DNA from: a virus
Lineage: Duplodnaviria > Caudoviricetes
Strand: one strand, 5' to 3'
IMG/VR virus record: IMGVR_UViG_3300031823_000101
Coordinates: 1-27,656 of that record
DNA: 27,656 nucleotides
Shown here: positions 2,507 through 24,668 of the stretch, in pieces
Position numbering within the stretch: the first letter of the stretch is position 1
Layout: every line of letters starts with the position of its first letter
Translations under genes and position numbers: made by a program
The notes under the pieces: generated by a model
Told to the model about the DNA's origin: nothing
Databases searched by the model: none
The model's input: the letters and a program-made list of their open reading frames with translations, nothing else

Positions 2507-3229
2507 TCACTCCGCGATCTGAATGAAGCTTGATTCTTTGTGGCCGGCTTGCAAGATTCCTGTGTCGTCCGGAATGAAACAATAGCTCAATTTGTCGTTA
2601 AATCCCCATCCGACGCGGCATGGCCTGCCGCCGCTTTCAATCGCGGTTCGCACCCTCACCCATTTCGGCGGTTCGGGAATCGGCTTCGGTGCGGGAGGAT
2701 CTGGGATGAAGAGGTGGGCACTGATGTCTTCCAGTTTATACGACGTGCCGTCGTGAAAATCGACGCGTCCGGCAGATATATTCTTCAGCGTTGCCACTTT
2801 GCACGCCACACCACGTAGTTCGGCGACGCAAAGGCCAGCTTGGGTTTCAGTCGGCGGACCGGGGAGCCAGCCTGAGGGCGATTGTGGTTCACACTCGAAT
2901 TCATCGCAGCGGTCGCGGAACTGAGTCCATTCGGCCACCGTGTGAGACATGACCGCTCCGCTCGGAGTTGTCATTTCGATTATGTCGCCCTTGATCTCGG
3001 CACAGTACCCATCAGACCCGTTAATCGCTTGGGTCCAAGCCGCTCCGCACGACTTGCGGCAGAGGCGACGCCATTCGGATTCCGGCATCGTGACGTGCGT
3101 CGAACAATAGGAAGATGCAGCTATTGCGACTTCAACCCCGTCCGTTCCGTCTGGGGCCACAAAGACGGAGACGCCTCGCGGAATCAAGACATTCGTGTCG
3201 TTGCTTGCCCTGTAGGCTTTGATCGCCAT
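2507..3229 (-). CDS. Hypothetical accessory protein, 240 aa, paralog of 441-1130
   Basis: Strong SD (TAAGGAG) upstream of the ATG, own promoter at 3279-3307, shared motifs with the paralog. Confidence 0.8.
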   Translation of the reverse strand: MAIKAYRASNDTNVLIPRGVSVFVAPDGTDGVEVAIAASSYCSTHVTMPESEWRRLCRKSCGAAWTQAINGSDGYCAEIKGDIIEMTTPSGAVMSHTVAEWTQFRDRCDEFECEPQSPSGWLPGPPTETQAGLCVAELRGVACKVATLKNISAGRVDFHDGTSYKLEDISAHLFIPDPPAPKPIPEPPKWVRVRTAIESGGRPCRVGWGFNDKLSYCFIPDDTGILQAGHKESSFIQIAE

Positions 3230-3278
3230 CGTGATCGCTCCTTACTGGGGTCTATTTGACAACGTCGTCTGAGCAACC

Positions 3279-3307
3279 ATCGTGGCAAAGCGGGACATGG
3301 CTGTCAA
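3279..3307 (-). promoter_or_regulatory. Sigma70-like promoter with CATGTC box
   Basis: TTGACA-GCCATGTCCCGCTTTGC(17 nt)-CACGAT upstream of 3229. Confidence 0.65.
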
Positions 3308-3310
3308 ACT

Positions 3311-5944
3311 TTACGGGAGCCGCTTGGTAGGCCAAAACGCCCATGCCGCGATGCCGGATTCGAGGACGACCCGCTTGCGGCGGTAGAACTTATGCTCCCA
3401 ATCGTCCAGTGCCTTCAGATCATCGGCCGAGACGTTGACGCGGAAGCCGCTGACTTCGTGGTCCGGATCGGGATTCAAATCGGAGAAGCCTTCATCAAAT
3501 TCCTTGTGCTCGTAGCCTTCGATCGAGTCGGCCGTCATCGAGACTTCGTGGCCAACGACCTTGGCGAACAGTGAGCCGCTTTTCAGGCTTCCATAGACAA
3601 AGATCGGCAGTGTTTTCTTTCCGGCCGACATTTGCTCGATGCGGCCGTCCATGCTCATTTGCTGTTTTTTCTCTCCGATCGCCGACTTGATCTGGTCTGG
3701 CTTGAAAACGATATAGACGTCGGTGAATGGATTGTAACTTTCCGCCCCCGGTTCAGCCGATGTGAGATCGTAGGAGTTCTTGATGATGATGCCGTCGTAG
3801 CCAATCACGCCAGCCGGATCGGCATCGTATTTTTTCTTGTTCGCGATGATGTCGTGCTCAAGCGTCTTTCGCATCGCTTCGAGTTTGGCGAGGTCTTGCT
3901 GAGGCGGTCCCAGATCATCGTATTCCGCCCAGCCTGGATACTCTTGTAGCAAATCCCAACGCAGCTGCTTGAATCGCCGTTCCTCTTCTGTGCGATATGT
4001 CTCGATGTTATCAGCGACTTCGCCGAGCGAGTCGGCCCACGATTCGCCGTTAGCGTTGATTCGCAACGGATGCTGAATTGAGAGGTAAACCGGGCGAATG
4101 TTGCCGCCCTCTGTTTGAGCGTAGCTGTCTGCGACGTCTGGATTGCTCGCGAAAAAATAGCACGGCACGCCGATCATCGAACTTTGCGTGTTTCCGCCGA
4201 TACGCGATTGAAACTGATCGAAATCCTTTCCGGTCCCATGAAACACGACCAGCGGTCGCCCTTTCTCGTCTGTCACTTCTGAATCGGAGAACCACGCCTT
4301 GAATCCTTTTCTCTCTGGCGTCTTTTTTGGTTCTGGATTTTCTTCGAGTTGGGCCTGCTGTTCTGGCGTCGCCTGCTCTAATGCCTCTGACGGAATGAAC
4401 TCGCCACCTTCAAAAAATTGATTGGCGATTCTAATGCCGTTTTTCGGGGCGTGGCGAATCGCCATTTGCACCGTCTCGTCCCCCCTTGGAGGACGCCCGA
4501 CGAAAAAATCAGTTTGACCGTTTCTGCCCGGTCCAAACCCATTGAAATGCCCCAACCGCTGCCGGCCGCCGTTGACCGTGAACCGCAAGTCAGTCGCAGC
4601 ATAACCGCCAAACGCCGCCGCCGCCTTTTTGAAAATCTTCCGGTGACGTGGACGGATGCTGGAATCGTCCATCGAGAACTGCTGTGCGTCGTCGGCCCGT
4701 TTCTTCATTGAACGTGTATCAGGCCCTTCCATATTGTCAGCACCGTCAATCGCGTCGGCCGGGTCGCCGCCTTCGCCGGTCAACTCATCCGGCATCAGGC
4801 GTTCGATGTCCACTTCCGCCTGCACGTCGTAATCGACCTTGCCAAAGTTGAGTTGCACAAGCGGGTCCCAAACCTGCTCTTTCTCATCGAGGGCGATCTG
4901 CCGGACCGTCTGCTGCTCGCTCAAGATGAAGGCCCGGAACGGCACCGAGCGGCCCGCCCGCGAACCAGACTCGCTCACGGCGGTCACGATGTCATCGGGG
5001 ATTTCAAGGCCGTGCAACGTCTCGCCGCGAAGTTCCTTGAGGTAGTCGTGCAGCCCCTGAGCCTCGCCGTTGAACTTCGGCTCGATGATGGCCCACATGG
5101 GATTTCCTTTTTCATCGAACACGGCCGGATAGCCCCAGACGGCACCCGCGGTGATTGACTCGACCATCTGCCGAGCTAAGTCGCGGTAGGGAATTTTCTG
5201 GATCACGCCGTTGGAATCCTGCCAAGTGTAGTCACCCGGAGGATGCTGAATGCCCCAACCGCTATAGACGTTTTTGTAGAACCACATGAGGCGGAGAGCG
5301 AGTGCCCCGCGTTGATCCCACTTTTCCAGCCACGTCTTATAGCAGCCGAGCAAATCCGAGCGGCCGTTCCAACTGCTGAACCGGCGATTGTGAACGTAGA
5401 CGAACGACTTCGGGGCCAGCAGCTTGATTTCGCCCTTGTCGGTTAACTCGGATTTCTCGTCGCCTTCGTAAGTGGGCCCGGCCTCCGTGCCGGAGTGTGC
5501 ATGAATGCGGATGCCGGCCAAGATGCCCGTCCGTGTGAGAATGCTCATGTCGGCCGAGTAAACGTCGCGGAGCCCAGCCAAGTGGACAAGGCCGTCGTCG
5601 CCCAGCTTGAACAGGTTTTCCCCGCCGCTCCGCGTGTACCATCGGCCTTCGAGCACCCGTGGCATCGTGTAATACCAAGTCGTCGTGATCTGCCGCTTGA
5701 CGTACTCGGCCACTGCCGGATCGCCGTCGATGTTGAACTTTACGGTGAGGCACGGGGCATACTTAATCGCCATGCCCAGCCGAATGTCGCCGTCGAACTT
5801 CATTTGCTCGACATGGCGGATCGTGAAAACCGGCAGGCCAAGCGACGTGAGAGCCGGGAGAGCCAATCCCCAGCCGCTCGGACGGTAGCCGGCAGTGCGG
5901 AACTCCATCAACTGTCGAACGGTCTGGGGAACGACTTCAAGCAT
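3311..5944 (-). CDS. Portal protein (Mu gp29/DUF935-like) fused to an ART-PolyVal-like ADP-ribosyltransferase and a C-terminal gamma-glutamylcyclotransferase (GGCT/AIG2-like) domain
   Basis: The N-terminal ~380 aa are portal-like (GRSDLLGCYKTW, SGSRAGRSV, VWDPLVQLNFG). ~4303-3677: FKAWFSDSEVTDEKGRPLVVFHGT...FFAS...PVYLSIQHP...GYDGIII...YIVFKPDQIKSAIG. ~3612-3314: IFVYGSLK...LKALDDWE...YRR. Confidence 0.85.
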   Translation of the reverse strand: MLEVVPQTVRQLMEFRTAGYRPSGWGLALPALTSLGLPVFTIRHVEQMKFDGDIRLGMAIKYAPCLTVKFNIDGDPAVAEYVKRQITTTWYYTMPRVLEGRWYTRSGGENLFKLGDDGLVHLAGLRDVYSADMSILTRTGILAGIRIHAHSGTEAGPTYEGDEKSELTDKGEIKLLAPKSFVYVHNRRFSSWNGRSDLLGCYKTWLEKWDQRGALALRLMWFYKNVYSGWGIQHPPGDYTWQDSNGVIQKIPYRDLARQMVESITAGAVWGYPAVFDEKGNPMWAIIEPKFNGEAQGLHDYLKELRGETLHGLEIPDDIVTAVSESGSRAGRSVPFRAFILSEQQTVRQIALDEKEQVWDPLVQLNFGKVDYDVQAEVDIERLMPDELTGEGGDPADAIDGADNMEGPDTRSMKKRADDAQQFSMDDSSIRPRHRKIFKKAAAAFGGYAATDLRFTVNGGRQRLGHFNGFGPGRNGQTDFFVGRPPRGDETVQMAIRHAPKNGIRIANQFFEGGEFIPSEALEQATPEQQAQLEENPEPKKTPERKGFKAWFSDSEVTDEKGRPLVVFHGTGKDFDQFQSRIGGNTQSSMIGVPCYFFASNPDVADSYAQTEGGNIRPVYLSIQHPLRINANGESWADSLGEVADNIETYRTEEERRFKQLRWDLLQEYPGWAEYDDLGPPQQDLAKLEAMRKTLEHDIIANKKKYDADPAGVIGYDGIIIKNSYDLTSAEPGAESYNPFTDVYIVFKPDQIKSAIGEKKQQMSMDGRIEQMSAGKKTLPIFVYGSLKSGSLFAKVVGHEVSMTADSIEGYEHKEFDEGFSDLNPDPDHEVSGFRVNVSADDLKALDDWEHKFYRRKRVVLESGIAAWAFWPTKRLP

Positions 5945-6546
5945 CTAGCGTCCTGCGTTGGCTTTCGCTTCGGCCGCAACAAAAGCGTCGATATATGCTT
6001 CCCATTCGTCCGCGACTTCGGCCGCGATCTGCTTTTCTTCCGGTTCCTGCTGCGTGGATCGCTGGGCTGTCATTCGTTTCAGGTCCGCGACGTAATCCTT
6101 GGTCGGGCTGTCGTCGTAAATCCGTCTCAGGGACTCGTCGGCTCGGATGCGGTCGATGGCTCTGTTGAATCCGATGCGGGCGTTTCGTCCGATGGTTCGG
6201 GGATCGATGTTTGGGCAGTAGAATGCAATCCGAACCGTTTGATAAAAAAACGGTCAAGTTCGCCCGCCTTGTCCGCGACTTTCTCGTAAAAGGCCCATGC
6301 CATGTGCAGGCTGACGTCGACGCCGAACTTATTCTTGACGTAACCTTGGACAATCAGCGTGAAGCGGATGCCGTTCTGATCCTCTTTGTTTGGCGTGAGC
6401 TTGGCGATGCTTTCAATGACTTCCAGCGGCGAGATTTTGAACGTCTTGCCGGCGATGACCAGCGTGATCCAGCCGACGTCGTCGCCGAGGTCAATCGTGT
6501 CATCCTTTGGCGGTTGATCGAAATCAGAATTTGTTGGTTGGGTCAT
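5945..6546 (-). CDS. Tail assembly chaperone GT-like -1 frameshift product, about 200 aa
   Basis: Slippery heptamer T TTT TTT at 6250-6244 in the frame of 6127-6546. The -1 frame stays open (YQTVRIAFYCPNIDP...EAKANAGR) to TAG at 5947-5945, which abuts the portal ATG. Confidence 0.75.
6127..6546 (-). CDS. Tail assembly chaperone G-like protein, 139 aa
   Basis: Small acidic ORF with a low-complexity tail after the slippery site, as in G/GT chaperones. Confidence 0.7.
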   Translation of the reverse strand: MTQPTNSDFDQPPKDDTIDLGDDVGWITLVIAGKTFKISPLEVIESIAKLTPNKEDQNGIRFTLIVQGYVKNKFGVDVSLHMAWAFYEKVADKAGELDRFFIKRFGLHSTAQTSIPEPSDETPASDSTEPSTASEPTSP

Positions 6547-8275
6547 TTGCTGTTGCCACCAGAAGTCCGGAAACGTCGCCCGTCAGCACCGTCGCCAACG
6601 TGGTCGGGTCATTTACTTGGAAAACAATGTACCAAATCGATCCGTAAAGCGTAGCCCCGAAGTAGTTCTGAAACGCTGCCGGCTCGATCTTCGAGTAAAT
6701 CTGCGTCCAGCCAGATTGCTGCGTCATCTGCTGAATAACCGACGGCAATTCGACAGGCTGATTCGCTCGCAGGGCGTAGCCGCGGGAGACGACGTAGACC
6801 GGATTCTGCCCTGAAATCTGCGTCTGCGGCACGGGGAGAGTCGTATCGGCGGCTGGAATCGATGGCTGGCCAGGGCTCCCATTCCCGTAATACAGAGCCC
6901 CAAGGCTCCCGTTGCTCTCTGCCGGCGGAGTTGTCGGCAGAGGAAAATGCGTCGTCGAATTATCGCCGCTCTCCACGTGAATGCGATGATCCCAGTCTTT
7001 GTACGTCGTATCACCGAGACTGTTCTGTAGCGGATACGTGTATTGCGGCGGTTGCTGCTGCCCGGGCGTGTAATTGATCGACGATTGCGAGGATCCGGGG
7101 TGGCAATAATCGACGATCAGGTCGTCCGCAGGATTCATGTACAATCCGGCCCCACCGCGAGACAGCCACGCCGAATTGTTCATGGTCGTTTGCCAGTCGC
7201 CCCAATCTGTCGACTGCACCGGCATGAACAGGCCGGTTTTCGTCGCCATGTTGTTCAAGTCTTGCATGTTGTTGACGTAAAAACTGATCGAAAAGTTGAT
7301 CCGTTGGCTATTGAATAACGACTCAGAAATGTCGACATCCTGAAGAAAACAGGCCGCGCCCTGATCCCTGATTGCTTGGACTCTTTCCTGCATGATCATC
7401 AGGGCCACGAGCCAACCCCATCCGTTCGCCTGCGGTTTAACAATTTCAACGGAACCGCTGATCACGCAGTTCGCGATGACAAAATTACCGTTCGCCCTGT
7501 CGCGTTTCGCTCTGGATCGTTGGGTGACTTGGATATCGCTGACGAATTGCGGATAGGCGTTTTGACCGGCGACCTCTTTACAGACTCCGACAAAATCCAT
7601 GCGGCTCTTGTCTTCGCTGATTTTGTAGTCCTGACTGACCAGAATGAAGCCAAGTGGGACCTGAAATTGAAATGCGTCACGCTGTTGATCGGCGTTGTAA
7701 GTGATGCTGGTTGCTCCGGGACTTGAGCGATTCAGGGCGATCGCCAAGTGTCCGTGCGTCGTGACCGTCGTTAATCCCGTCTGGTTGATCGAGAAATCCT
7801 GCGTCCAAACGTAGTCGAGCAACCGATTCTGTTGGCCGACAAAGCTATAGGAGCTGGGGCATTGGGCGATCGCCACCTCGCACGTCCAGTGAACTTGCAT
7901 CACCGCATTGGAAGCAACGGGCCGGTACGCAATCGCCTGTGACTTGGGACCGTACAGCACGTCCACGTTTTGCGAGGTCGTATTGACGCTCAGGCCACCG
8001 TAGCCCAGTCCGCTGAACTCAAGAGGTCCGCCCGGCTGATTGAGCAGGGCCATAATCATCTCGGAATTCATGCCCGCATCGCCGCCGCCGCCGCCAAGTC
8101 CGGTGATGTCGTCGCTAAGGACAAAATCCGTCTCAAGTCGATAGACGTTGTAGAGATTTGTGCGATTGGCACTATCCGGCTGCGGGCGGCAAGAGAATCG
8201 CGTATGGACACGCGGCCCGGCAATGGTCACGCCGTTGTAAGAAATCGTGCCGAGTGCTGGGAGAGTGATTGGCAT
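6524..8275 (-). CDS. Putative tail protein (distal tail/baseplate-like), 583 aa
   Basis: Directly follows the tape-measure-like gene. Beta-rich N/Q/S/T composition and an N-terminal GTISYNG motif. Confidence 0.6.
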   Translation of the reverse strand: MPITLPALGTISYNGVTIAGPRVHTRFSCRPQPDSANRTNLYNVYRLETDFVLSDDITGLGGGGGDAGMNSEMIMALLNQPGGPLEFSGLGYGGLSVNTTSQNVDVLYGPKSQAIAYRPVASNAVMQVHWTCEVAIAQCPSSYSFVGQQNRLLDYVWTQDFSINQTGLTTVTTHGHLAIALNRSSPGATSITYNADQQRDAFQFQVPLGFILVSQDYKISEDKSRMDFVGVCKEVAGQNAYPQFVSDIQVTQRSRAKRDRANGNFVIANCVISGSVEIVKPQANGWGWLVALMIMQERVQAIRDQGAACFLQDVDISESLFNSQRINFSISFYVNNMQDLNNMATKTGLFMPVQSTDWGDWQTTMNNSAWLSRGGAGLYMNPADDLIVDYCHPGSSQSSINYTPGQQQPPQYTYPLQNSLGDTTYKDWDHRIHVESGDNSTTHFPLPTTPPAESNGSLGALYYGNGSPGQPSIPAADTTLPVPQTQISGQNPVYVVSRGYALRANQPVELPSVIQQMTQQSGWTQIYSKIEPAAFQNYFGATLYGSIWYIVFQVNDPTTLATVLTGDVSGLLVATANDPTNKF

Positions 8276-8278
8276 AAA

Positions 8279-9862
8279 TCAGGGGACGTTCTTCGGACCG
8301 CCGATAGCTTGACGGCCGGGAATTGCAGTTCTTTTCCCTTGGTGGGCGGCGGCCCTTTTATTTTGGAATCCTGGAACTTGCATGTTGAATAGGTCGTTCC
8401 AGTTCTTGTCGTCCATGTGGGCATCGCCCTTGAACTCGGTCAGCTTTAACTCGTTGAGGTGAATCCAGAGGAGGAGTGCCCTCTTGGCAAAATCGAGCGA
8501 CTGCACGATGTTTCCCGAGCCTGGAAACGCTCCCGCAATACCTTCGGCCACGCTGTAGGCAAGATCAACAAATGTGCTGCTCAAGTCCACAGACGAAAGC
8601 CAGAGGTTTACTCCGTTCAGGGTCTCCGCGAGTTTTTCCATAGCTGCCGCAAGAATCGGCTCGAACTGCTGCGTCAAGTTGGCTTTTGTGTCCTCCCACG
8701 ATTGATCGATACCGAATTTGCGTTCGGAGAACTGAGACAGGTAGGGAGAGATCGCTTGTGATCGCATGAAGTCCAATTGAAGGCCACGAACCGAAAGAGA
8801 TGCCTGCGTTTCCTGGAACAGACTGCTCAATTGGCCATAGCGAGCGGTCTGCTCGTTGATCGACGTGACAAGGGCATAGGTCGCACCCGTCAGACCGGCG
8901 ACTGCCGCCGCCCCCGCAGCGAGCGGGGCTGCGATCGCCATAATGCCGGCGGCTCCCCCGAGTCCGGCTGCCGCACCTGCTCCGCCGACTCCGCCGCCAC
9001 CGACGATCCCGGCCGCACCGCGAAAGCCCATCGACGCGATTTGGGCAACGCGACCGCCGCGACCCATGACAGTGCCGGCCGCCTGAAGGCCGACGGCCAT
9101 TCCTCTAAGGTTTGCCGCCGCGTGGTGACGCTGCAAACGCCCGGCGACGACAGCCGCCCGCCGGGCGGCGTTGGCTGACCTCTGGCTTGCTTGTGCCACT
9201 CGTGCCGTTTTCTGGCGTTGCTTTCGACGTCTCTGACGGAGCAGGTTAACGGCCTTTGCTTGCCGCTGTGGGCTGCCGCGTTGGTGCATCCCGCGAGGTG
9301 TCACGAAACTCTTGATCGGAATCGGCCGTGCCGCCGCTCGCTGTTGATGACGTCTGCGACGGATCAAGCCTAGTGCCCGTTGACGTCGCTGCGGACTGCC
9401 ACGCTGATACATGCCACGCGGTCCGCGTTGTGCTCCCTGTGGCTGCTTTGTCGTCGGTTGCTGGAGCGATTTGTACTGGTCGAGCACGCCCGCGAATTCT
9501 GCCGCCTGCGGGATGTTCGACTTGGCAAGCGATTCGAGCGACTTGAAGACTTCGCCCAAGGCTTCCATCCCGCCGCGAATCGACTGCATCGCCTCTTTGG
9601 CGGACGCTTCGTAGGCGAGGTCGCGTTGCTGGCCGCCAGAGCGAACCGATTGCCGGTAGGCGGAGTATTTGGACTCTTCCGAGACGAGCCGCTGTTGATA
9701 CTGCTTGAACTGGTCAAGGTCGCGTTGAAAGGCACCTGCGACGCCGGCACCGGCTTCAGCGGATGGGCCTGGGCCTAAACCGGGAGCTGCGGCAGGCTGG
9801 CCGGATGGCTGCTCGCCTTCGCCCTCGATGACGATCCGAAGTTCAGGGTTGTCGCCAGCCAT
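8279..9862 (-). CDS. Short tape-measure-like protein, 527 aa
   Basis: Follows the tail tube. Helical, with a Gly/Ala-rich hydrophobic centre (GAAGIVGGGGVGGAGAAAG...) and an N-terminal ELRIVIEG. Confidence 0.6.
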   Translation of the reverse strand: MAGDNPELRIVIEGEGEQPSGQPAAAPGLGPGPSAEAGAGVAGAFQRDLDQFKQYQQRLVSEESKYSAYRQSVRSGGQQRDLAYEASAKEAMQSIRGGMEALGEVFKSLESLAKSNIPQAAEFAGVLDQYKSLQQPTTKQPQGAQRGPRGMYQRGSPQRRQRALGLIRRRRHQQRAAARPIPIKSFVTPRGMHQRGSPQRQAKAVNLLRQRRRKQRQKTARVAQASQRSANAARRAAVVAGRLQRHHAAANLRGMAVGLQAAGTVMGRGGRVAQIASMGFRGAAGIVGGGGVGGAGAAAGLGGAAGIMAIAAPLAAGAAAVAGLTGATYALVTSINEQTARYGQLSSLFQETQASLSVRGLQLDFMRSQAISPYLSQFSERKFGIDQSWEDTKANLTQQFEPILAAAMEKLAETLNGVNLWLSSVDLSSTFVDLAYSVAEGIAGAFPGSGNIVQSLDFAKRALLLWIHLNELKLTEFKGDAHMDDKNWNDLFNMQVPGFQNKRAAAHQGKRTAIPGRQAIGGPKNVP

Positions 9863-12792: not shown

Positions 12793-13359
12793 TCAAGCCA
12801 TAAAACAGGCGTAAGTCGTTATTAGAGCTAGCGTTAGACTCCACAGGTCAACCCATAAATCTGAGGGGTCTAGGAATCTTTGGAAGGCTGAGGTCTGATC
12901 GTTTGATGAGAGAGTCTGGGAAACTCGCATCTTCGTGATCCCAAACCGCTGATCGACCCGAATCGCCGACTCCCAAGCCCCAAGTTCAGACCGCGGCACG
13001 GTTAGCGGCACTTCGCACCCCGCCTCGTTCCGCTGAATCCGCTCCAATTGGTCGATGATCTTGTCGTAATCGGCCTGCAACCCGGATTGGACGGCGTTAT
13101 CACGCCGGATGATCTCCACGCTGGCGATGATCGCACAAGCCCAAGTGACATAATCGTTTCCGACTAGATTGCCGGGATCATACCGCGTGTCGAGGTAGAA
13201 GTCGATCTGTGTCGAGGCTCGGTTGATCGCGTTGTCGATGTCCCACGTCGTGACCGGCGAATTCGTGTCGCCGTCTTGGGCCATGAACGACTGGAGTCCG
13301 GCCCGGCGGAGAATGTACTGGATATGGGACTGGTCGCAGTAGTTGGTTGTGGTGGTCAT
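12793..13359 (-). CDS. Head-tail connector, Mu gp36/DUF1320-like
   Basis: YC near the N-terminus; IDNAINRASTQIDFYLDTRY; ACAIIA; YDKIIDQLERI. Confidence 0.8.
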   Translation of the reverse strand: MTTTTNYCDQSHIQYILRRAGLQSFMAQDGDTNSPVTTWDIDNAINRASTQIDFYLDTRYDPGNLVGNDYVTWACAIIASVEIIRRDNAVQSGLQADYDKIIDQLERIQRNEAGCEVPLTVPRSELGAWESAIRVDQRFGITKMRVSQTLSSNDQTSAFQRFLDPSDLWVDLWSLTLALITTYACFMA

Positions 13360-14328: not shown

Positions 14329-15501
14329 TCAGTAACCGTAAGCGGTCGCGTACCCCGAAGCGTAAGGCACGTAATTGCATGGGAATGCGTTGTCGAGAGC
14401 GAACAGCAGCGTCGCGGTCGGATTCCACTGCCACGTCGTCCAGGCCGAGAGTCCCATTTTGACCACGGGATTCTGATTCGGCCCTTCCGCGATCGGCTCG
14501 GAACCGATGGCCATCTCGAAAAAGAACGGGTCCGGCGTCCGCGGTCCGAACCAGAACGAGCCGTCCGCGACGAGTTTCGTCTTGGTGTAACTCGAACTGC
14601 CGGTGCCGGGGTTTTCGGCCGTCTGCTTGCCCAACTGCAAGACCGTGTCCGTGATGATGAACTCCAGCCACGGCGTGCAGGCGAGACGACCGATCTTGAG
14701 GTTACTCGGGGCCTCAATGGTCCCGGACGGACGCCGCGTGTATTCGGAAAACGGCGTGTTGGAGATGCCGGCCTTCATGGCGACAAAGTCATTGGCCGTG
14801 ATGTACGACCAAAGTTGGGCACCACAGACGATCCGCTGGAGACCGATGCCGACCAAGTTCTGCATCGCGATGTCGATCAACTCGAACTGCGTCGGGATGT
14901 CGGTCGCGGACGAGGACCAGTAGCCCGTGATGATGTTGCCGGCCCCCAGCATATTCAACTGGTTTTGGTTGCCGGACGGCATCTGCCAGTTGTACGTGAT
15001 GAGATTCGTGCCGGACGTGTAATCGATATACAGGTCGTTGCCGTTCGGATGTGCGTAGGCCAAGCCACGCATCATGCCGCCCAAGAGCACGGCCCTGAAG
15101 TTGGCCGCCCGCTGACCCATGAACCGCTGTTGCCGGCGAATGAACGACGTGCCCAGCGTGTCGTAGACATTGGAATTGCCGCCGATCGGCCGCATGTTGT
15201 GCAACTCTTCCGCGGACAGCGGCAGTTGCTCGTGCATACGCGGAATCGTGACGTTGACACGACCGACTGCCTGCCGCGTGACGGTCTTGGCCGCTTCGCC
15301 CGGCATCGTGGTCATGCCGACTGATCGGCTGTTGTTGAACACGTCGTAACCGTGGGCACGATGGCCGACCGGCAATTCGCACGGTCCGCCGGGAGTCATG
15401 CCAAACTCGGCCAAGAGCGGCATTTCCGCCGTCGCGACGCGGGAAATGACCTTGGTCGTGACGATGGGCGAGAGAAGTTGTCTGACTGTCGCGTTTGCCA
15501 C
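14329..15501 (-). CDS. Major capsid protein (lambda gpE / Phage_cap_E-like)
   Basis: AGGAG SD + GTG, 390 aa, position after the decoration protein; PGEAAKTV, IPRMHEQ, WSSSATDIP, NPTATLL...AFP motifs. Confidence 0.85.
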   Translation of the reverse strand: MANATVRQLLSPIVTTKVISRVATAEMPLLAEFGMTPGGPCELPVGHRAHGYDVFNNSRSVGMTTMPGEAAKTVTRQAVGRVNVTIPRMHEQLPLSAEELHNMRPIGGNSNVYDTLGTSFIRRQQRFMGQRAANFRAVLLGGMMRGLAYAHPNGNDLYIDYTSGTNLITYNWQMPSGNQNQLNMLGAGNIITGYWSSSATDIPTQFELIDIAMQNLVGIGLQRIVCGAQLWSYITANDFVAMKAGISNTPFSEYTRRPSGTIEAPSNLKIGRLACTPWLEFIITDTVLQLGKQTAENPGTGSSSYTKTKLVADGSFWFGPRTPDPFFFEMAIGSEPIAEGPNQNPVVKMGLSAWTTWQWNPTATLLFALDNAFPCNYVPYASGYATAYGY

Positions 15502-15574
15502 GTCTCTGACTCCTGTCTTTGTCTCTCAGGTGACAAGCGACGTTGCCTGTCGTCCCGTTTCCCGTCGTCTCGGA

Positions 15575-16387
15575 TTAGGTGATGGTCAAAGTGGTCGCGT
15601 TGACGCTGTACTGGCGGAACAGCCAGACGTAATTGGTGCCGTCGAAAATGCTGAGGAAATCGACGTAGGCACCGCGTTCATGCGAGGTCGTGTTGAACGC
15701 GACGTTGTTCGATGCGATGGCGTTGTCGGAGTAGATGTTGGCGCCTTCCGACGAACTGATTTCCATCACCTGCTGGGCACGGTTGACGAAGCCGAAGTAG
15801 TACCCGTAACCGAGCGGAGTCGTGATGGCCGGCAGTGTGAAAACGGTCGTCAAGCTGCCGTTGGCGACGAACAGCGTGCCTTGATCGGACGACAGCAATT
15901 GGTAACTCGCCGTCTTGGGAATCACGCATTTGTACGGGAAGTAACTGAACTGCTGCGGCAAGTCGTCGTCGAAGATGAACCGGCCACGCATTTGGCTGCG
16001 GGCCTGCTGGTCAAGACCGATGATCGTGGTCGACTTCACGGGGCCACCGACGAGCACCGCACACGCCCGCGACTGATCCGCATTCGAGTACGGGTCAAGC
16101 ATGTCGAGGTCGATCGCCAGAATGGCCGTGGCGATTTCGGTCCCATCGACCGCCGTACCGCTGTATTGCAGGTAGTTGTTGGACGACGTCTGAAAACCAA
16201 GCAAGAGGCCGGGCCGCAAGAACGTGGTGGGCGTGTTGCCGGCGTCGACCGTGGCGGAGTTGATGACGCCGTAATCCCACAGGAACGGCCCGAAGAATCC
16301 GCCCCAGCCGATCGTCCCTTCGATCGACTGATAGATGTCGGTCTGGCCCGGAATGTTATAGGAGCCGAATCCGCCTGCTGTCGACAT
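15575..16387 (-). CDS. Head decoration protein (gpD-like) with a C-terminal beta-rich extension
   Basis: LRPGLLLG...Y...DGTEIATAIL motif; C-terminal KTASYQLLSSDQG...FTLPA domain; lies between scaffold and capsid genes. Confidence 0.75.
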   Translation of the reverse strand: MSTAGGFGSYNIPGQTDIYQSIEGTIGWGGFFGPFLWDYGVINSATVDAGNTPTTFLRPGLLLGFQTSSNNYLQYSGTAVDGTEIATAILAIDLDMLDPYSNADQSRACAVLVGGPVKSTTIIGLDQQARSQMRGRFIFDDDLPQQFSYFPYKCVIPKTASYQLLSSDQGTLFVANGSLTTVFTLPAITTPLGYGYYFGFVNRAQQVMEISSSEGANIYSDNAIASNNVAFNTTSHERGAYVDFLSIFDGTNYVWLFRQYSVNATTLTIT

Positions 16388-16456
16388 CTTTGCTCTCCCC
16401 GAACCGGACTGCTCTCGTTAAACCGCTTGATTCCGGGCACCCGTCCGCGACGGCTG

Positions 16457-17890
16457 CTAGTTCGTCTTGGTCAACTCTGGTTCGTTGCCGTAACCCATGA
16501 GGCGTGCCGCTTCGGACGCGAACTTTTCGGCTTCCTCTTCCGTGATGTTGCTGCCGTCCGGCGTCATAAACGGGTCGCGTGGCTCTTCCCGCGTCGCCAT
16601 TTGCTGAACTCGCTGCTGATCGTCCCATGCCGCTCCATCCCGCATCCGGTCGGCCATACGAAGCTCGGCTTCAAGAATCGCGTCAGCCGGAGCGTCGGCC
16701 GCAAACTGGTACGTGCCGGCCCGTTGTTTCATTTCGTTGGCGACTTCCGGGCTGATCGCACCGCGTTTGAGGTTGGCGTCGATCCGCTGAAGGTACTTTT
16801 CGCGGCGAAGCGTCGTAACTTCCGCCTGGAGAGCCTTTTCGGTCTGCGACATTTGCACAACAGGCTCCGGTTTCGGCTCCGGAGGCTTGGGCGTTGGCTC
16901 GGTGGGCGTCGGATGCGGCGGCTTCCGCTCCGGGTCGATCGACATTTGAAACACACCGGCATCGGCCAGTTCCATGATCCGCTTGGCCTCGTCGGCGGTC
17001 ATCTTGCCAGCGGCAACGGCCTCGTCGAACTTCGCTTTCGCATTGGCGTCGATGGACATAACAAGCACCGATGGTTCAGTTTTGAGCGGGGCTTTCTTCC
17101 CGCCGGGTTCTTGCATCGACTGGCTTCCGCCGGCCAGCCCTTTGTTCGCAATCGAGTACGTTTCGGCCGCTGCCAAAAGTACCTTCAAATCACCGTTCCA
17201 ATTCTCGGGCACCGCGATTCCGAGATTCCTGAGGCAGCAGACGAGTTTTTCGCGTTCCGTGGGCGGTTTCTTGCCCTTTGCCTTTTCGCCTTCCGGGTCA
17301 TTCGGGTCGTACTCGTCATCGACGGTCTGCCTCATGCCGGATTCGTCGTACATCGGTTCGCCGGCCATCTGGATCACGGGATACTTTTCGCTCGCCGCGT
17401 CCAAACTGAGGGCCTGAACCGCCTTGAATTCCTTGGTTTGCTGCGGATTGAGAGGCCGCGGCGTGATCGCCATATGGCTGATCGCCCGCCGATATGTCTT
17501 GCCGGTCAGGGGATTCGTGTACCGGCTGAGTTGCGGGCTGACAAAGCTGCCCACCTTCTCGATGCGGTCCGCATCCTCGTCGCGTGCAATTTCGATCCGT
17601 GCCTTGACCTTTCCGTCCGTGTCGCGGAACAGATCGGTCATCCAGCCGGCCGTCAGATAATCCCGCTCCCGTTTCTCGATTTCCGAGCGATTCTTGCCGT
17701 CGACAGGGTAGCCCATCTGGTCGAGAGCATCCGGGTGAGCGAACGGGACTGGAATCTCCAGCCCGCTCTTCTGCATGTCGTGGAAGTTCTCGATGAATTC
17801 GTCGAAGTCCTTGTCGGTGACTGTGACTGCGGCCCCTTCCGTCAGAAAGGTTCCTGGTCGTCCGACTTCTTTGATGAACTCTCTGGGCAT
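16457..17890 (-). CDS. Mu-like prohead protease I fused to a scaffold region
   Basis: H(P), AGWM, FVSPQL and ISHMAITPRP motifs of Mu-like proteases; charged, coiled-coil C-terminal scaffold. Confidence 0.85.
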   Translation of the reverse strand: MPREFIKEVGRPGTFLTEGAAVTVTDKDFDEFIENFHDMQKSGLEIPVPFAHPDALDQMGYPVDGKNRSEIEKRERDYLTAGWMTDLFRDTDGKVKARIEIARDEDADRIEKVGSFVSPQLSRYTNPLTGKTYRRAISHMAITPRPLNPQQTKEFKAVQALSLDAASEKYPVIQMAGEPMYDESGMRQTVDDEYDPNDPEGEKAKGKKPPTEREKLVCCLRNLGIAVPENWNGDLKVLLAAAETYSIANKGLAGGSQSMQEPGGKKAPLKTEPSVLVMSIDANAKAKFDEAVAAGKMTADEAKRIMELADAGVFQMSIDPERKPPHPTPTEPTPKPPEPKPEPVVQMSQTEKALQAEVTTLRREKYLQRIDANLKRGAISPEVANEMKQRAGTYQFAADAPADAILEAELRMADRMRDGAAWDDQQRVQQMATREEPRDPFMTPDGSNITEEEAEKFASEAARLMGYGNEPELTKTN

Positions 17891-17907
17891 TGGTCATCCT
17901 GAATCGC

Positions 17908-18002: not shown

Positions 18003-18251
18003 ATGAAAACGATTCATCGAACAACGATTTCCGCACAGTGTCCACATGGACATGCCGATCTTTACGACGTCGAATTTCACACAGCGTGCCTCGTGCTGGT
18101 CGAGAGCCTACAAAAGGCGATCGACGAATCTGTCGGCACTCCGGCGTATCAGGAAGAATTGACGATCAAACTGGCAGAGAAGTCCGGTTGCCATGTCGTT
18201 ACTCGCGGTCGGCATCTCAAGTTTGAAACTGAATGCACGGCGGATCCATGA
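18003..18251 (+). CDS. Small QueF-like T-fold protein, 82 aa
   Basis: ISAQCPHGHADLYDV, VESL, YQEELT and GRH motifs resemble QueF/GCH-I T-fold; ATGA-coupled to the TGT-like gene. Confidence 0.7.
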   Translation: MKTIHRTTISAQCPHGHADLYDVEFHTACLVLVESLQKAIDESVGTPAYQEELTIKLAEKSGCHVVTRGRHLKFETECTADP

Positions 18252-18994
18252 TCCATTACCACGGCACGCCAGTCGGCGGCTCGCGAGAACAGGCGACGAA
18301 ATTCTTGAAGGGCCGTCACGCGATGGTCTCATTCGCCCGCGATGAAGATTTGGCGGTCGCGGCTGACGTCTGCCAATCATTCGCGATCGACAACGGGGCA
18401 TTTACGACATGGAAGCAAGGCAACAAATTCGATCCGAACGAATTCACGGATTGGGTAGGAAACAATTGGGCGAAACACCCGGGATTCGATTGGGCTTTGA
18501 TTCCCGACGTTATCGACGGGACCGAGGAAGAAAACGATCTTCTCATTAATCGGTGGCCGTTTGAAATTCGTGGTTGCCCGGTGTGGCATCTTCACGAGTC
18601 GCTCGACCGCCTTAAAAAACTTTGCGGTTTGATCCAGTTTCGTGCCGTCGCTTTCGGCAGTTCCGGCAAATGGAGAACGCCCGGAACGGACGCTTGGAAA
18701 ACACGGATGGGCGAGGCCTTTGACGCGATCTGCGACAGTGACGGTCGGCCGCCATGTCGATTGCACGGCTTGCGAATGCTGGCGTCTGATATTGTTTGTC
18801 GGTTCCCGTTCTCGTCGGCTGATTCGACGAATGCGGTTCGCAATTCGAGTCTCTATGGGCGATATGGCTGCTACTGTCCCCCAGAGCGTTCACAGCGAGC
18901 CGAAAACAACGCCCGCATAATCGAGGCGATCAACAGTCCGCCGGTCTGGAAACGCACGAATCTGCAACTCTCGCTCGATGAACTTTGGGGATGA
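18248..18994 (+). CDS. TGT/DpdA-like transglycosylase (putative 7-deazaguanine DNA insertion enzyme)
   Basis: MIHYHGTP, IDNGAF, IPDVI, PVWH, LHGL and SADST motifs of TGT-like TIM barrels. Confidence 0.75.
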   Translation: MIHYHGTPVGGSREQATKFLKGRHAMVSFARDEDLAVAADVCQSFAIDNGAFTTWKQGNKFDPNEFTDWVGNNWAKHPGFDWALIPDVIDGTEEENDLLINRWPFEIRGCPVWHLHESLDRLKKLCGLIQFRAVAFGSSGKWRTPGTDAWKTRMGEAFDAICDSDGRPPCRLHGLRMLASDIVCRFPFSSADSTNAVRNSSLYGRYGCYCPPERSQRAENNARIIEAINSPPVWKRTNLQLSLDELWG

Positions 18995-18995
18995 A

Positions 18996-19580
18996 ATGAC
19001 CATCGAAGACCTAATCGCCCGCGTCCGCTTCCGCACGCCACAAGCCGAAGTGAACAAAATCCGCGACCGTCACCCGGAATATCACGCACAGAAGTTCTTC
19101 GACTCGGTCACGTTCGGTGCCCAAGCGTGCCATCAGGCCCAGCGTGTCGGGCTGTTCGACGCGAAGCCGGGGAGGCTGCTCGACATTGGGTGTGCGTTCG
19201 GGTACTTGCTTGTCGCGGCGGAGGAGTTGGGGCATTGGGCCGGCGGCATCGACACCACGAGCATGTGCATCTTCGATGCGTGCGAACTTTTCAACGTCCG
19301 GTATTTTCCGCAGAACGTGAAGGCGTTCGAACCGCTGACTATCGACCATCAGGGATACGACTTCATCACCGTTTTCGGCGTCAACTTCGCGGAGGGCGGC
19401 CGATTCTGGGGCTTCGAGGAATACGACTTTTTCTTCCGCGACTGCGTGAGCCGGCTGAATCCTGGCGGCATCGTGTGGGTCGAATACAACCGCGGCGAAC
19501 AGACGTCATGGCTTGCCGATGCCAAGTGGCCCGGGATGAATTTCGAGGCTGTCGACAATCGGATTAGGATAAAAAAATGA
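18996..19580 (+). CDS. Class I SAM-dependent methyltransferase, 194 aa
   Basis: LLDIGCAFGY motif I, YDFIT, RLNPGG. Confidence 0.85.
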   Translation: MTIEDLIARVRFRTPQAEVNKIRDRHPEYHAQKFFDSVTFGAQACHQAQRVGLFDAKPGRLLDIGCAFGYLLVAAEELGHWAGGIDTTSMCIFDACELFNVRYFPQNVKAFEPLTIDHQGYDFITVFGVNFAEGGRFWGFEEYDFFFRDCVSRLNPGGIVWVEYNRGEQTSWLADAKWPGMNFEAVDNRIRIKK

Positions 19581-19803
19581 GTCACACTCCTCCGTGGGCA
19601 ACGCTGATTTTCGCTGTCATGTTTTTCATGACGGCTCAGCTCGTCGGGATCGAAATCAGAATTGAAAAGAGCAAAAAGCCGTTTGACTATTGCATTAAAT
19701 ACCTTGCGTGGGGCATCGGATTTTATTTGGCAATCGTCGCCATTCGTGCCGATGGCAGCTTCATTCCGTGAGCGTTGACAATCGGATTAGGATTCGGAAA
19801 TGA
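19554..19803 (+). repeat. Direct repeat of the methyltransferase 3' end flanking a small gene
   Basis: GACAATCGGATTAGGAT at 19554-19570 and 19777-19793; both copies continue to AAATGA. Confidence 0.85.
19577..19771 (+). CDS. Small two-TM membrane protein, 64 aa
   Basis: ATGA coupling; two hydrophobic segments. Confidence 0.65.
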   Translation: MSHTPPWATLIFAVMFFMTAQLVGIEIRIEKSKKPFDYCIKYLAWGIGFYLAIVAIRADGSFIP

Positions 19804-20057
19804 CTGGACGTCTGCCGGTAATCGAAGCTTGCTACCGGTGCCCGTATGCCTCACGCAAAACACACAGCGAGGACATGGGCGGCTCGCAACGTGGAACGCA
19901 CACGTATTTCCTAAGGTTGTATTGCACGCATCCAAACGGCAAAGACGACGGGAAGATTTTCGACAATTCGGCTGATGAGTTTGGAGAGCATTTTCCAATC
20001 ATCTTGGGCGAAATAGACATTCCAGAATGGTGCCCACTTCCGAAAGCAGAGAAATGA
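19800..20057 (+). CDS. Small Cys-rich putative Zn-binding protein, 85 aa
   Basis: CYRCPY...C...IPEWCPL; ATGA-coupled to the GT gene. Confidence 0.7.
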   Translation: MTGRLPVIEACYRCPYASRKTHSEDMGGSQRGTHTYFLRLYCTHPNGKDDGKIFDNSADEFGEHFPIILGEIDIPEWCPLPKAEK

Positions 20058-21109
20058 CCGATCGACCGATACGAGTGGCCTGCCTCTGTGATCGCGCGGG
20101 ATGGTGCTTCGAAAGCCGAGCACTTCAGATTCAAAAGCACGCCCCGCCGCACCTTCACATCGACGTCCTGCACATCGGCTACAGCAGCATCGAGCACGAA
20201 ATCGTCTGGCCGCTCTACGACGTCGTGTTTTGCATGTGGCCGCAAAAGACGTCAGAGGTCCGGGCGATCCTCGACAATCTCGGCCTCAAGACGCCACTGA
20301 TCGCCGCGTACAACTCCGGCACGCATCGGCCCGGCTACGGCCTCGAAATGACGGCCGCTGCGGATTACGTCATCGTCAACAATTGGGGCTCGTGGGCTCA
20401 CGCGATGGCCAAGTCATTCGGACGGTTCAAGGGCTGCCACATTTCCAACGGCGTGGACATGGGCTTCTATTGCGTCAAGCGACCGATCGCCGAGCGGCCC
20501 AACCGCGTGCTGTGGATCACGTCCGAAACGAAGGCTCAGGACCCCGACGACGTCAAGGGCTGGCGGACGCTGCTGAGACCGCTGGAGCCGATGCTGCGTG
20601 AGAAAGGCATCGAGTGCGATTTCCGCGTGGTGAAGCCTGAAGAGGAAATGACGGCCGAACGGATGGTCGATTGGTACAACAGCGGCTCAGTGTTTCTGGT
20701 GACGTCCAAGAGCGAGGGGACGCCAAACACGGCTCTTGAGGCCGCGGCTTGCGGGTGCGTGATCGTGTCGACGCCGGTCGGTAATCTCACGGAGTTGATC
20801 CAGCCGGGACGCAATGGGGCCATCTTCGAGCGCGGCGGTGATGCGGACGTGCTCAAGGCGTTTGAAGGAATCGAGGCTGCGTTGGCGAATCGGGAAGCGT
20901 GGTCGGCGGCGATGCGTGAATCGCTGATCGGCGGCGAGTGGGAGTGGTCACGAAGGTCGCGGTTTTACCATGCCGTTTTCAAAGGCGTTCACGCTCGCTA
21001 CGCCGTGGATTTCGAGGACTCATCACGTAACAGCGTAATCGGCATGCCGCCGTTCACGTACCTGACGGCTGATCTTGAGCAGATTGACGGGTCGGCTCCG
21101 CCGTTTTAA
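20054..21109 (+). CDS. GT-B glycosyltransferase, family 4-like
   Basis: ISNGVD, YNSGSVFLVTSKSEGTPNTALEAAACGCVIVSTPVG (EX7E motif). Confidence 0.9.
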   Translation: MTDRPIRVACLCDRAGWCFESRALQIQKHAPPHLHIDVLHIGYSSIEHEIVWPLYDVVFCMWPQKTSEVRAILDNLGLKTPLIAAYNSGTHRPGYGLEMTAAADYVIVNNWGSWAHAMAKSFGRFKGCHISNGVDMGFYCVKRPIAERPNRVLWITSETKAQDPDDVKGWRTLLRPLEPMLREKGIECDFRVVKPEEEMTAERMVDWYNSGSVFLVTSKSEGTPNTALEAAACGCVIVSTPVGNLTELIQPGRNGAIFERGGDADVLKAFEGIEAALANREAWSAAMRESLIGGEWEWSRRSRFYHAVFKGVHARYAVDFEDSSRNSVIGMPPFTYLTADLEQIDGSAPPF

Positions 21110-21344
21110 TGCCGAGTATTTCGTCGATCCTGTCACGCAAATCGCACCAAGCGTCGACTTGTGCTCCAGACCAACTCTGCTGCAACGCGAACTGGATCGG
21201 CACCCGGGACTTTTCTAGCAGCCGTCGCAGGCACGCGATTTCATCAAGCAATTCAAGGCCGATCTTCGGATCTTCCATCCATCCGAGCGGGCCAGTCATT
21301 TTCTTGAGACGAAACTTGAGATCGTCTTTGTCCGCTTGATTCAC
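21054..21344 (-). CDS. Hypothetical small phage protein, 96 aa
   Basis: GTGA coupling with the epimerase stop; LELLDEI motif of small phage accessory proteins; 3' end overlaps the convergent GT gene. Confidence 0.55.
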   Translation of the reverse strand: MNQADKDDLKFRLKKMTGPLGWMEDPKIGLELLDEIACLRRLLEKSRVPIQFALQQSWSGAQVDAWCDLRDRIDEILGIKTAEPTRQSAQDQPSGT

Positions 21345-22390
21345 AACCGTTCCCTCCACCCCTGCACAATCTCGACCACGATCTCTTCCAGCGTCCGCGA
21401 CACAGACCAGCCCGGATAATCATGCATCACGCGGCGAAGGTCCGAATAGTAGCAGATGTGATCGCCCTTACGCGGCTGATCCACGTAGACCGATTTCATC
21501 GGCAGTCCGGTTACCGACTCGACCAGCTTGAACGCTTCGAGGATCGAGCACGAATTCGCTTTGCCGCCGCCCAGATTGTACACGGCCGCTTTGCGTGGGG
21601 CCTTGGCGAACTCTTCGACGAACCGGGCCACGTCGACCGCGTGCAGATTGTCGCGGACCTGCTTGCCTTTGTAGCCGAAGATTTTGTACTCACGGCCTTC
21701 GAGGTTGCAGCGGACGAGATAGCTCAGGAAGCCGTGCAACTCGACGCCGGCATGGTTTGGCCCGGTGATGCACCCGCAACGCAGGCAGACTGTCGGCATG
21801 TCGAAGTATCGGCCGTACTCTTGGACCATTAGATCGGCGGCGAGTTTGGAGACTCCGAATGGGGAGTGTAGGCAGACGTCTACGCTCAACATTTCTGTGA
21901 TGCCCTCAAAGGCGTTGCTCATTCTGTGGAAATCGTATCGGTCTTCACTTTCAGTGTGCATGTAAAAATTAGGCCGGTCCCCATAGACCTTGTTCGTCGA
22001 CAGAAACACGAACGGCGATTCAGGGCAATGCTGCCGAGCGGCCTCCAACACGTTCAGCGTGCCCACCGCGTTGATGTCGAAGTCTTCGAGCGGAATCTTG
22101 GCTGAAAGGTCGTGCGATGGCTGCCCGGCTGCGTGGACGATCAGGGAGGGTTTAATCTTGCCGATTCGCCAGTCCATACGGCGTCGATCACAGACGTCTT
22201 CGTGCATGAAGTTTCCGTTGCACCACTTCAATGACCGATCGTTACCAAATGAATTCGGACCATCACCGAGCAATTTTCTACGCCCATAGTTGTCGATTCC
22301 GAAGACTTCCCAGCCCAACTCGGCGAAGTGCCAGCAGACCTCCGAACCGACGAGGCCCGATGAGCCGGTGACGAGGATTGTTTTGGTCAT
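21341..22390 (-). CDS. NAD-dependent NDP-sugar epimerase/dehydratase, CDP-paratose 2-epimerase-like
   Basis: ILVTGSSGLVG, HAAGQPSH, STNKVYG, HSPFGVSKLAADLMVQEYGRYF, GKQVRD, GDHICYYSD; start at ATG 22390 (ATGA overlap). Confidence 0.9.
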   Translation of the reverse strand: MTKTILVTGSSGLVGSEVCWHFAELGWEVFGIDNYGRRKLLGDGPNSFGNDRSLKWCNGNFMHEDVCDRRRMDWRIGKIKPSLIVHAAGQPSHDLSAKIPLEDFDINAVGTLNVLEAARQHCPESPFVFLSTNKVYGDRPNFYMHTESEDRYDFHRMSNAFEGITEMLSVDVCLHSPFGVSKLAADLMVQEYGRYFDMPTVCLRCGCITGPNHAGVELHGFLSYLVRCNLEGREYKIFGYKGKQVRDNLHAVDVARFVEEFAKAPRKAAVYNLGGGKANSCSILEAFKLVESVTGLPMKSVYVDQPRKGDHICYYSDLRRVMHDYPGWSVSRTLEEIVVEIVQGWRERL

Positions 22391-22629
22391 TGGTCGTCTT
22401 TCAAAAAGAAAGCGTTGTTTTTGACGATGCCGGCCGCTTTCCAAAATTGCCATACGCAGCCGAGTTCGGCCGCAATCAGAATCAGCAAGTTGACGATCAT
22501 AAGAGGCAACGAGCACCAATAATTGAACTTATCGCCATGATTCGGTAATGACGCTGCGATTGAATCGTTGCAGAGTCTCGCGGCAACCGCGATCAGCCAC
22601 CACATCGCGATCAATTTGAAGTTCTTCAA
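22387..22629 (-). CDS. Small two-TM membrane protein, 80 aa (MKNFKLIAMWW...)
   Basis: TTGA coupling at 22629; two hydrophobic stretches. Confidence 0.6.
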   Translation of the reverse strand: MKNFKLIAMWWLIAVAARLCNDSIAASLPNHGDKFNYWCSLPLMIVNLLILIAAELGCVWQFWKAAGIVKNNAFFLKDDQ

Positions 22630-24620: not shown

Positions 24621-24626
24621 CCCCCC

Positions 24627-24655
24627 TCAATACAACTCCGCGACATGGCTGTCAA
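24627..24655 (-). promoter_or_regulatory. Sigma70-like promoter with CATGTC box (leftward)
   Basis: TTGACA-GCCATGTCGCGGAGTTG(17)-TATTGA, with the ATG six nt later. Confidence 0.6.
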
Positions 24656-24668
24656 ATTTGCCAAAAGT

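Follow-up and report, generated by a model that had tools for sequence, protein, structure and literature searches.

The stretch of DNA analysed here (27,656 nucleotides of an uncultured soil virus of the Caudoviricetes, IMG/VR record IMGVR_UViG_3300031823_000101; hereafter the window) contains on its minus strand, at positions 3311-5944, a single stop-free open reading frame (ORF) of 877 amino acids, as seen in the ORF list and its translation. It encodes a phage portal with a long C-terminal tail that holds two enzyme folds, an ADP-ribosyltransferase (ART) of the ART-PolyVal family and a gamma-glutamylcyclotransferase (GGCT), and several copies of a short motif, Q-[M/F]-[S/A]. The same motif recurs in the scaffold part of the putative prohead protease, pointing to a portal precursor that would be cut by the phage's own protease. 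That portal, ART and GGCT are joined in one ORF was the claim of an earlier reading made from the letters alone (the sequence-only reading), and it proved correct: one Logan contig of run X1 covers positions 3200-6000 at a depth of 7.5, with no differences and no gaps; X1 was the one run found to contain this DNA, no RNA run being listed. Since run X1 is maybe the source of this very DNA, and then not independent, the match checks the assembly only. A frameshift or chimera found no support, given the letter-for-letter contig together with three other portals bearing GGCT and six others bearing ART-PolyVal. The portal ORF, its parts and the head genes described below all lie on the minus strand.

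Portal core and the two enzyme domains

Residues 1-387 (4784-5944) make up the portal core. Directly, the 877-residue protein matches the portal family PHROG 113 weakly (E 3e-5), and in a Pfam scan its portal region found no match, Portal_Mu (PF06074) included. Most of the 98 portal homologues scanned do match Portal_Mu, and a profile of 72 portal sequences retrieves solved portals (E 1.6e-7). The AlphaFold model of residues 1-430 (pLDDT 84.6, order ending near residue 390) gave portals in all top rows of a Foldseek search, G20c being the best (E 2.6e-12); the portals of P7-1, P74-26 and JBD30 and a Mu neck entry (E 1.4e-5) were found as well. These matches place the core in the Pfam Portal_Mu-related family with an HK97/G20c-type fold. 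Judged by the model, the N-terminal part of the ORF is a tailed-phage portal of wing/stem/clip/crown fold, as had been expected.

The region between core and ART holds a disordered stretch of Gly, Pro, Gln and acidic residues, a 71-residue segment (residues 424-494; 4463-4675) that by alignment recurs in relatives whether or not they carry cargo, and the small module HAPK...GGEFIP (residues 498-518; 4391-4453). The name "charged linker" given to it in the sequence-only reading is thus too narrow. Fourteen copies of the module occur in 12 of 161 portals of the family, 13 of them at most 12 residues after an [MFL][SAG] pair; the module is modelled at pLDDT below 50 and has no match in PHROG.

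The ART-PolyVal domain spans residues 559-760 (3665-4270), where Pfam PF18760 is matched over profile positions 1-138 of 140 with 91.8 bits against a cut-off of 31.2 (E 8.9e-26), in agreement with the earlier call. The AlphaFold model of residues 492-877 is weaker than that of the core (pLDDT 62.8, 14 sequences), and its ART part matches PARP catalytic domains (Z 6.5, rmsd 4.8, 116 residues) less well than its GGCT part matches known structures. An active-site alignment places H569, F597 (where Tyr is usual), Y608, D717 and V743, the last at the canonical Glu place in the strand TDVYIVF (residues 741-747). The lack of this Glu had led the sequence-only reading to suggest that activity or substrate of the ART may be atypical. 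Glu stands there in only four of 20 ART-PolyVal units from portals, loci and cultured phages, so its absence does not single out the window ART, and section 9 of PMC5512222 gives the active-site set of the family as H-Y-D instead of H-Y-E; mono-ARTs such as PARP10/14 are tabled as H-Y-I/L in PMC7955679. From the alignment we infer that D717, of G-Y-D-G, is the strand-5 Asp of the description in PMC5512222. At the strand-2 Tyr place, the 15 of 20 units that were parsed have Tyr (nine), Trp (four) or Phe (two), the window ART having Phe. It also has a helical insert of about 70 residues (640-708). An IMG/VR pattern scan for the ART gave nothing, and ART-PolyVal is present in one of 301 genomes of the phylum of G001.

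The GGCT/AIG2-fold domain (residues 773-877; 3314-3628; 11.8 kDa) ends the ORF. Pfam GGACT (PF06094) matches residues 781-872 (E 1.4e-9, 39 bits against a cut-off of 22.8), and YGSL (at 784) and LDDWE (846-850, the LDxxE of the earlier call) are intact, as had been noticed from the letters. The model resembles YkqA (Z 9.5, rmsd 2.8 over 92 residues) and human GGCT (Z 8.3), and structure matches find the fold also in allophanate hydrolase; the domain has no match among PDB sequences. E850 of the D-x-x-E helix, presumably catalytic, is kept in all four portal-fused GGCT copies and in one cellular homologue, and the YG[ST]L loop is kept too. Fold, FVYG[ST]L start and conserved Glu are those of the GGCT/GGACT/AIG2/YtfP family (PF06094), whose members known so far are encoded by cells or by separate genes of phages (PHROG 2520), whereas here the domain is a portal appendage. 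Known GGCT-fold enzymes require small substrates with a free alpha-amino gamma-glutamyl group, and the removal of protein cross-links, one of the roles first imagined for it, is therefore unlikely. The GGCT query was found in two of 201 genomes of the phylum of G001.

A short motif in portal tails and scaffold

Four copies of Q-[M/F]-[S/A] lie in the portal tail. Site 1, Q-F-S (residues 422-424; 4673-4681), stands 35 residues past the core, at the same position as in the related portals P0002 and P0003; a cut here would leave a mature portal of about 423 residues, predicted at 47.6 kDa. Site 2, Q-M-A (493-495; 4460-4468), and site 4, Q-M-S (771-773; 3626-3634), are by alignment the left and right borders of the ART insert, which runs from Q493-M-A to Q771-M-S where P0002 has one Q-M-S. 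Site 3 is again Q-M-S (762-764; 3653-3661). Against these four copies 0.27 are expected in the tail (p 1e-4), and the core has none.

Across the family the motif follows the same pattern. QMS is the most over-represented tripeptide in the 161 portal tails (58 copies against 4.6 expected, in 33 tails), the next being MSL and then RMS. For the 43 proteins with mapped cargo, [QR]MS has 38 copies in linkers (25,693 residues), one in cargo domains (6,651 residues) and none in cores (16,464 residues), and the looser [QR][MF][SAG] reaches 4.5 per 1,000 residues in linkers against 1.3 in cores and 1.5 in cargo domains. Between core and first cargo domain, 33 of the 43 have [QR][MF][SA] (shuffle mean 10.3, maximum 17), and within the first 100 tail residues [QR][MFL][SAG] occurs in 78 of 99 long tails (shuffle mean 35, maximum 48); the median distance of the motif from the portal core is 36 residues. 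In the models of residues 1-430 and 492-877 it lies in disordered linkers. Leader-like modules (APKGG...GGxFIP, HPR...G[RKQE][FW] and GHxH) follow an [MFL][SAG] pair at no more than 12 residues in 39 of 41 copies. Elsewhere in the window there are single copies in 8279-9862, in the decoration protein and in one doubtful ORF; the major capsid protein has no Q-[MF]-[SA], and homologues of the capsid, tube, adaptor and 6524-gene proteins show no enrichment of the motif.

The head genes of the window encode a major capsid protein (14329-15501; PHROG), a head decoration protein (15575-16387; Pfam and PHROG), a Mu gp36-like head-tail adaptor (12793-13359; Pfam and PHROG) and a probable Mu gpI-like prohead protease/scaffold of 477 residues (16457-17890). 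Pfam and PHROG gave no MuF match in the window. Residues 1-166 of the 477-residue protein resemble PF10123 (Mu-like prohead protease) clusters in the Atlas (TM 0.67), and H52 and S118 are invariant in 20 of 20 protease-scaffolds of the family; by this fold likeness and these residues, the product is an assemblin-type protease with the scaffold fused behind it. An IMG/VR pattern scan for the protease gave nothing. Q-[MF]-[SA] stands in the scaffold at 174, just beyond the protease domain, and at 315, 346, 395 and 430 (five copies against 0.16 expected, 0 of 20,000 shuffles). In the 20 scaffolds [QR][MF][SA] amounts to 40 copies against 5.7 expected (maximum 14), in their protease domains to three against 1.9, and M, F and L interchange at aligned motif positions. 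Over the decoration and protease genes runs an 834-residue antisense ORF (15398-17902, plus strand) without Pfam or PHROG match, probably a shadow frame.

From these distributions we consider it quite probable that the protease cuts the portal tail at Q-[M/F]-[S/A]. Could the motif instead be a signal for binding or assembly, docking coat, scaffold or protease, and itself remain uncut? Short binding motifs also occur in disordered linkers, and cargo-free tails have the motif as well (see below). Yet it stands just past the protease domain, near the place where the portal core ends and on either side of inserted cassettes, the order of hydrophobic residue and then Ser/Ala suits serine head proteases, and Mu combines the same layout with reported portal processing, all of which makes an uncut signal very improbable. 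Hardly credible is a further alternative, that the Met of Q-M-[S/A] is an internal start from which ART and GGCT would be translated separately as well, in the manner of gpZ within Mu gene I. Nested starts do exist in Mu gene I and three of the four portal sites contain ATG, but the codon of site 1 is TTC, and of 94 sites in 87 locus tails 49 carry Leu or Phe, with TTG making up only six of 35 Leu codons. The three ATGs score weakly for ribosome binding (-1.7 to -3.5), although this range overlaps with that of the weaker real starts.

Cargo repertoire, cassette history and gene neighbourhood

The portal core family comprises at least 932 clusters at 50% clustering. Among the 161 portals the tail has at least 200 residues in 99, at least 500 in 52 and fewer than 100 in 49. 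A Pfam cargo scan of 98 of the 104 portals with tails of at least 150 residues found 2H in nine (some Acb1-like), ART-PolyVal in seven, topoisomerase IB in six, MuF in five, GGCT, PBECR and other ARTs in four each, zeta-like and LPD in three each and sigma-70 in two. The sequence-only reading had proposed a search for portal homologues with variable C-terminal cargo, and such homologues thus abound. Sigma-70, RelA/SpoT, SNF2 helicase, topoisomerase IB, Nudix and Acb1-like 2H domains are carried by the related portals P0060, P0067, P0137, P0020, P0079 and P0090, which reach sizes of up to 2,740 residues.

Only the window portal, one of the 98 scanned, has ART and GGCT together, and a coupled pair was rejected on this co-occurrence. 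Its closest relatives, at 64% (P0002) and 60% (P0003) in the core, carry GGCT and no ART, and P0008 and P0009, sisters of these two, carry neither. In a quick tree of 55 hand-chosen rows out of the 161, GGCT recurs in a distant branch (P0094) and has been gained at least twice in the family, while the seven ART carriers are scattered among non-carriers, indicating fast turnover of cargo. The G+C content of third codon positions is 0.61 in the insert (495-771) versus 0.77 in the core (p 7e-6); that of the GGCT part, 0.74, is like the core (p 0.44). GGCT and core are also equally conserved towards P0002 (63% and 64% identity). The relatives with GGCT alone and the codon composition of the insert suggest that GGCT was acquired first and that the ART cassette was inserted afterwards. 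ART and GGCT thus look like separately acquired cassettes, contrary to the single effector system first assumed.

ART-PolyVal units of the cultured phages F116 (L128), Dfl-JY45 (L131) and USP_18 (L133) are followed by I-x-F-S and those of related loci by I-x-M-[SA], border motifs similar to that of the window. The cultured Tunturiibacter phage Tunturi_5 (L127, 5419-11281) has a 1,262-residue Nudix/ART-PolyVal protein directly before its portal gene, an unfused form of the portal and ART layout.

Seven genome loci with relatives were identified, in a Planctomycetaceae metagenome-assembled genome (MAG), an Alienimonas isolate, whose related prophage has a portal tail of just 32 residues, and five MAGs of other groups; two of the seven being planctomycete, a planctomycete host is plausible, though unproven. 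G006, a complete syntenic relative of 82.9 kb bounded by direct terminal repeats, encodes a terminase, a primase/helicase set and a cargo-free portal of 466 residues. The terminase is seen there and not in the 27.6-kb window, which has capsid, decoration and adaptor genes upstream of the portal gene. The ORFs after the head genes we take to be tail genes from their position, not from a database match. Downstream of these presumed tail genes comes the portal gene, separated by about 10 kb from the protease gene and, in G006, by about 30 kb from that of the terminase; many related loci show this gene order. The G006 terminase (78558-81488, minus strand; 975 residues) gives its profile match in separate stretches, and another G006 ORF (26243-28264, minus strand) combines a terminase/helicase-like ATPase with a DNA methyltransferase-like part.

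Next to the portal gene, at 6524-8275 (minus strand), a 583-residue protein with 83 matches in related loci and no Pfam or PHROG family is by position probably a tail-tip component. A queuine tRNA-ribosyltransferase-like gene (18233-18994, plus strand; PHROG 887, E 2e-62) has no match in the examined parts of G006; its product is possibly, we assume, a DNA deazaguanine-insertion enzyme. Beside the head genes, at 18978-25840, lie methyltransferases, a glycosyltransferase and a nucleotide-sugar epimerase, four genes there having homologues in G006; the cluster possibly serves virion or DNA glycosylation.

Proposed processing, packaging and ejection of the cargo

We propose that twelve precursors would nucleate the prohead with their tails inside, as in standard portal geometry, and that the gpI-like protease would cut the scaffold and, at the four shared sites, the portal tail. 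The cut would probably fall between Met/Phe and Ser/Ala, at 423/424, 494/495, 763/764 and 772/773 of the portal protein, a position chosen after the known specificity of head proteases. The predicted pieces are the 47.6-kDa portal, a 7.8-kDa piece, a 30.3-kDa leader plus ART, a 1.1-kDa peptide and the 11.8-kDa GGCT, and HAPK...GGEFIP would become the new N-terminal leader of the freed ART. The folded pieces would stay in the head, 12 x 51 kDa taking less than 1% of an assumed 55-65 nm head, and during ejection ART and GGCT would leave it together with the DNA, like T4 Alt. The ART would then most likely mono-ADP-ribosylate a host protein early in infection, as Alt does, and the GGCT most likely convert a small gamma-glutamyl compound (glutathione-like or a gamma-glutamyl amine) to 5-oxoproline; these targets are guesses. 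In this lineage GGCT would have been fixed first, and the ART cassette would have entered afterwards between copies of the motif. If the tail is cut, retention in the head and ejection are likely; towards the whole chain, from cutting to ejection of both enzymes, we lean with modest confidence.

The idea of the sequence-only reading that the portal is a device for loading enzymes into the head lumen is hereby supported, while its other half, that they stay covalently on the dodecamer in the mature head, seems improbable. Attachment would agree with the continuous ORF, and the N4 virion RNA polymerase is described as packaged unprocessed (PMC5512222, section 8). However, the motif stands in the scaffold and at the borders of all cargo, and with probable sites of the prohead protease on either side of each enzyme, neither is likely to be kept on the dodecamer. 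A portal remains in the virion neck once the DNA has left, as modelled in DNA-ejected Mu (PMC11915804), so that enzymes attached to it would be unable to enter the cytoplasm.

Loss of the portal C-terminus has its precedent in Mu as well, where gp29 lacks its last 124 residues in cryo-EM, its C-terminus being described as maybe cleaved by protease I, with Grimaud 1996 cited (PMC11915804). The likeness extends to the portal core (387 residues here, 388 resolved in Mu), the fusion of protease and scaffold, the gp36-like adaptor and a repeat of a hydrophobic residue followed by Ser/Ala that runs through the scaffold and has a copy about 35-40 residues past the portal core. The Mu gpI/Z scaffold contains six [ASV]-L-[SA]-A against 0.31 expected. 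In contrast to Mu, whose tail of 124 residues has no known enzyme and x-L-S-A, the tail here has 490 residues, two enzyme folds and Q-[MF]-[SA], and the best fold matches of the window portal are G20c/P74-26-type portals.

Several points weigh against our proposal. The motif is also present in 25 of 49 short cargo-free tails and is thus no mark of cargo as such. Neither the portal profile against the single Mu gp29 sequence nor the protease profile against the single Mu gpI sequence gave a significant match in hhalign. The Mu gp29 tail has one [ASV]-L-[SA]-A (428-431), not significant alone (p 0.055). The 16457-17890 product matches neither Pfam nor PHROG, its call as a protease coming from Atlas look-alikes and the invariant residues, and among 50,697 phage records the portal matches no cultured phage. 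Preference for Q versus R/K in scaffold and portal tail covaried insignificantly in a first test (rho 0.42, p 0.17, n=12); in a larger set rho was 0.49 (n=19), and 0.72 for the 14 cases with at least two sites each, with two unpairable prophages of one genome left out and P0163 paired with P0003 on equal size alone. As kin share the Q/R/K trait and related phages are not independent, this covariation lends supporting colour only. The window ART alone among the 20 units lacks the C-terminal segment N-x-G-x-[FYW] found after QIKSA in the other 19, a criterion drawn from these very units; the domain may be active, altered or decaying, and may be impaired. Finally, cut scaffold normally exits procapsids (PMC11445458), and the 11.8-kDa GGCT piece could leave the head likewise.

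The last points lead to another possible, if rather unlikely, outcome: the tail is cut and the pieces are not delivered. They would exit the prohead and act late in the producing cell, for instance against defences that sense portal or terminase, or the clipped tail would be a tolerant landing site in which some cassettes, the window ART among them, are inert. Besides the exit of scaffold, this is favoured by the fast turnover of cargo across the tree, by the missing segment and strand-2 Phe of the window ART and by PMC9503650, where it is suggested that such ARTs may instead protect the packaging apparatus. On the other hand, GGCT is conserved at the rate of the portal and keeps its Glu; the family's cargo (2H/Acb1-like, PBECR, topoisomerase IB, sigma-70, ARTs, Nudix, MuF) belongs to classes described as early-acting and head-packaged (PMC5512222); and fusion to a 12-copy structural protein would be a costly way of making a cytoplasmic enzyme.

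As a type, the portal-effector fusion is already predicted in print and common in this portal family. Fusions of PBECR, 2H and InPase to portals were predicted (PMC5512222, Iyer 2017), and ARTs, Nudix and 2H fused to portal or head proteins are listed in PMC9503650 (2022). The sequence-only reading had known of no described portal-ART-GGCT fusion; with such predictions and six other ART portals among the 98, this applies to the GGCT cargo, none being found in the literature searched. The terms GGCT and cyclotransferase do not occur in the main texts of PMC5512222 and PMC9503650, nor in PMC7824862, a negative that excludes the figures and FTP supplement of Iyer 2017, which may list such architectures. 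A search of titles and abstract starts, with most subscription papers outside it, found no paper describing GGCT fused to a portal or portal cargo set free by a protease. The window ORF has the hallmark of polyvalent proteins, at least two disparate effector domains on one chain (ART and GGCT), and resembles the polyvalent/MuF effectors of Iyer in its ART-PolyVal domain, in unrelated enzymes on one chain and in the cargo classes of its portal family. It differs in processing: PMC5512222 stresses built-in zincin or assemblin-like peptidases, whereas the window polyprotein has no built-in peptidase and a separate head protease would cut it at a defined motif. Three features appear new here: the GGCT cargo, an ART insertion that can be traced to a place between copies of the motif, and the exact positions predicted for cuts by the protease of the phage itself.

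In T4 the head protease gp21 trims cargo, cutting after Glu. T4 Alt, also an ART, is carried in the head and enters the host along with the DNA (PMC5512222, section 9), as is proposed here for the window ART. Alt, however, is a free enzyme of the R-S-E clade, and here an ART of PARP/diphtheria fold sits on the portal, which would fix 12 copies per head. Going further, and speculatively, the clip-off tail of the portal family might be a plug-in cargo dock giving 12 copies of each cassette, with the leaders as ejection or targeting tags and GGCT as the first virion-injected gamma-glutamyl enzyme; in this full form the idea is doubtful.

The proposal brings together two separate matters, the unexplained trimming of the Mu portal and the effector fusions predicted for portals, in a single mechanism whose cut positions are named. 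Should it be true, the injected enzymes of a family of at least 932 clusters would be readable from sequence, GGCT would be a new candidate class of head-packaged effector, and the cleavable portal tail would be a natural loading device for a fixed number of enzymes.

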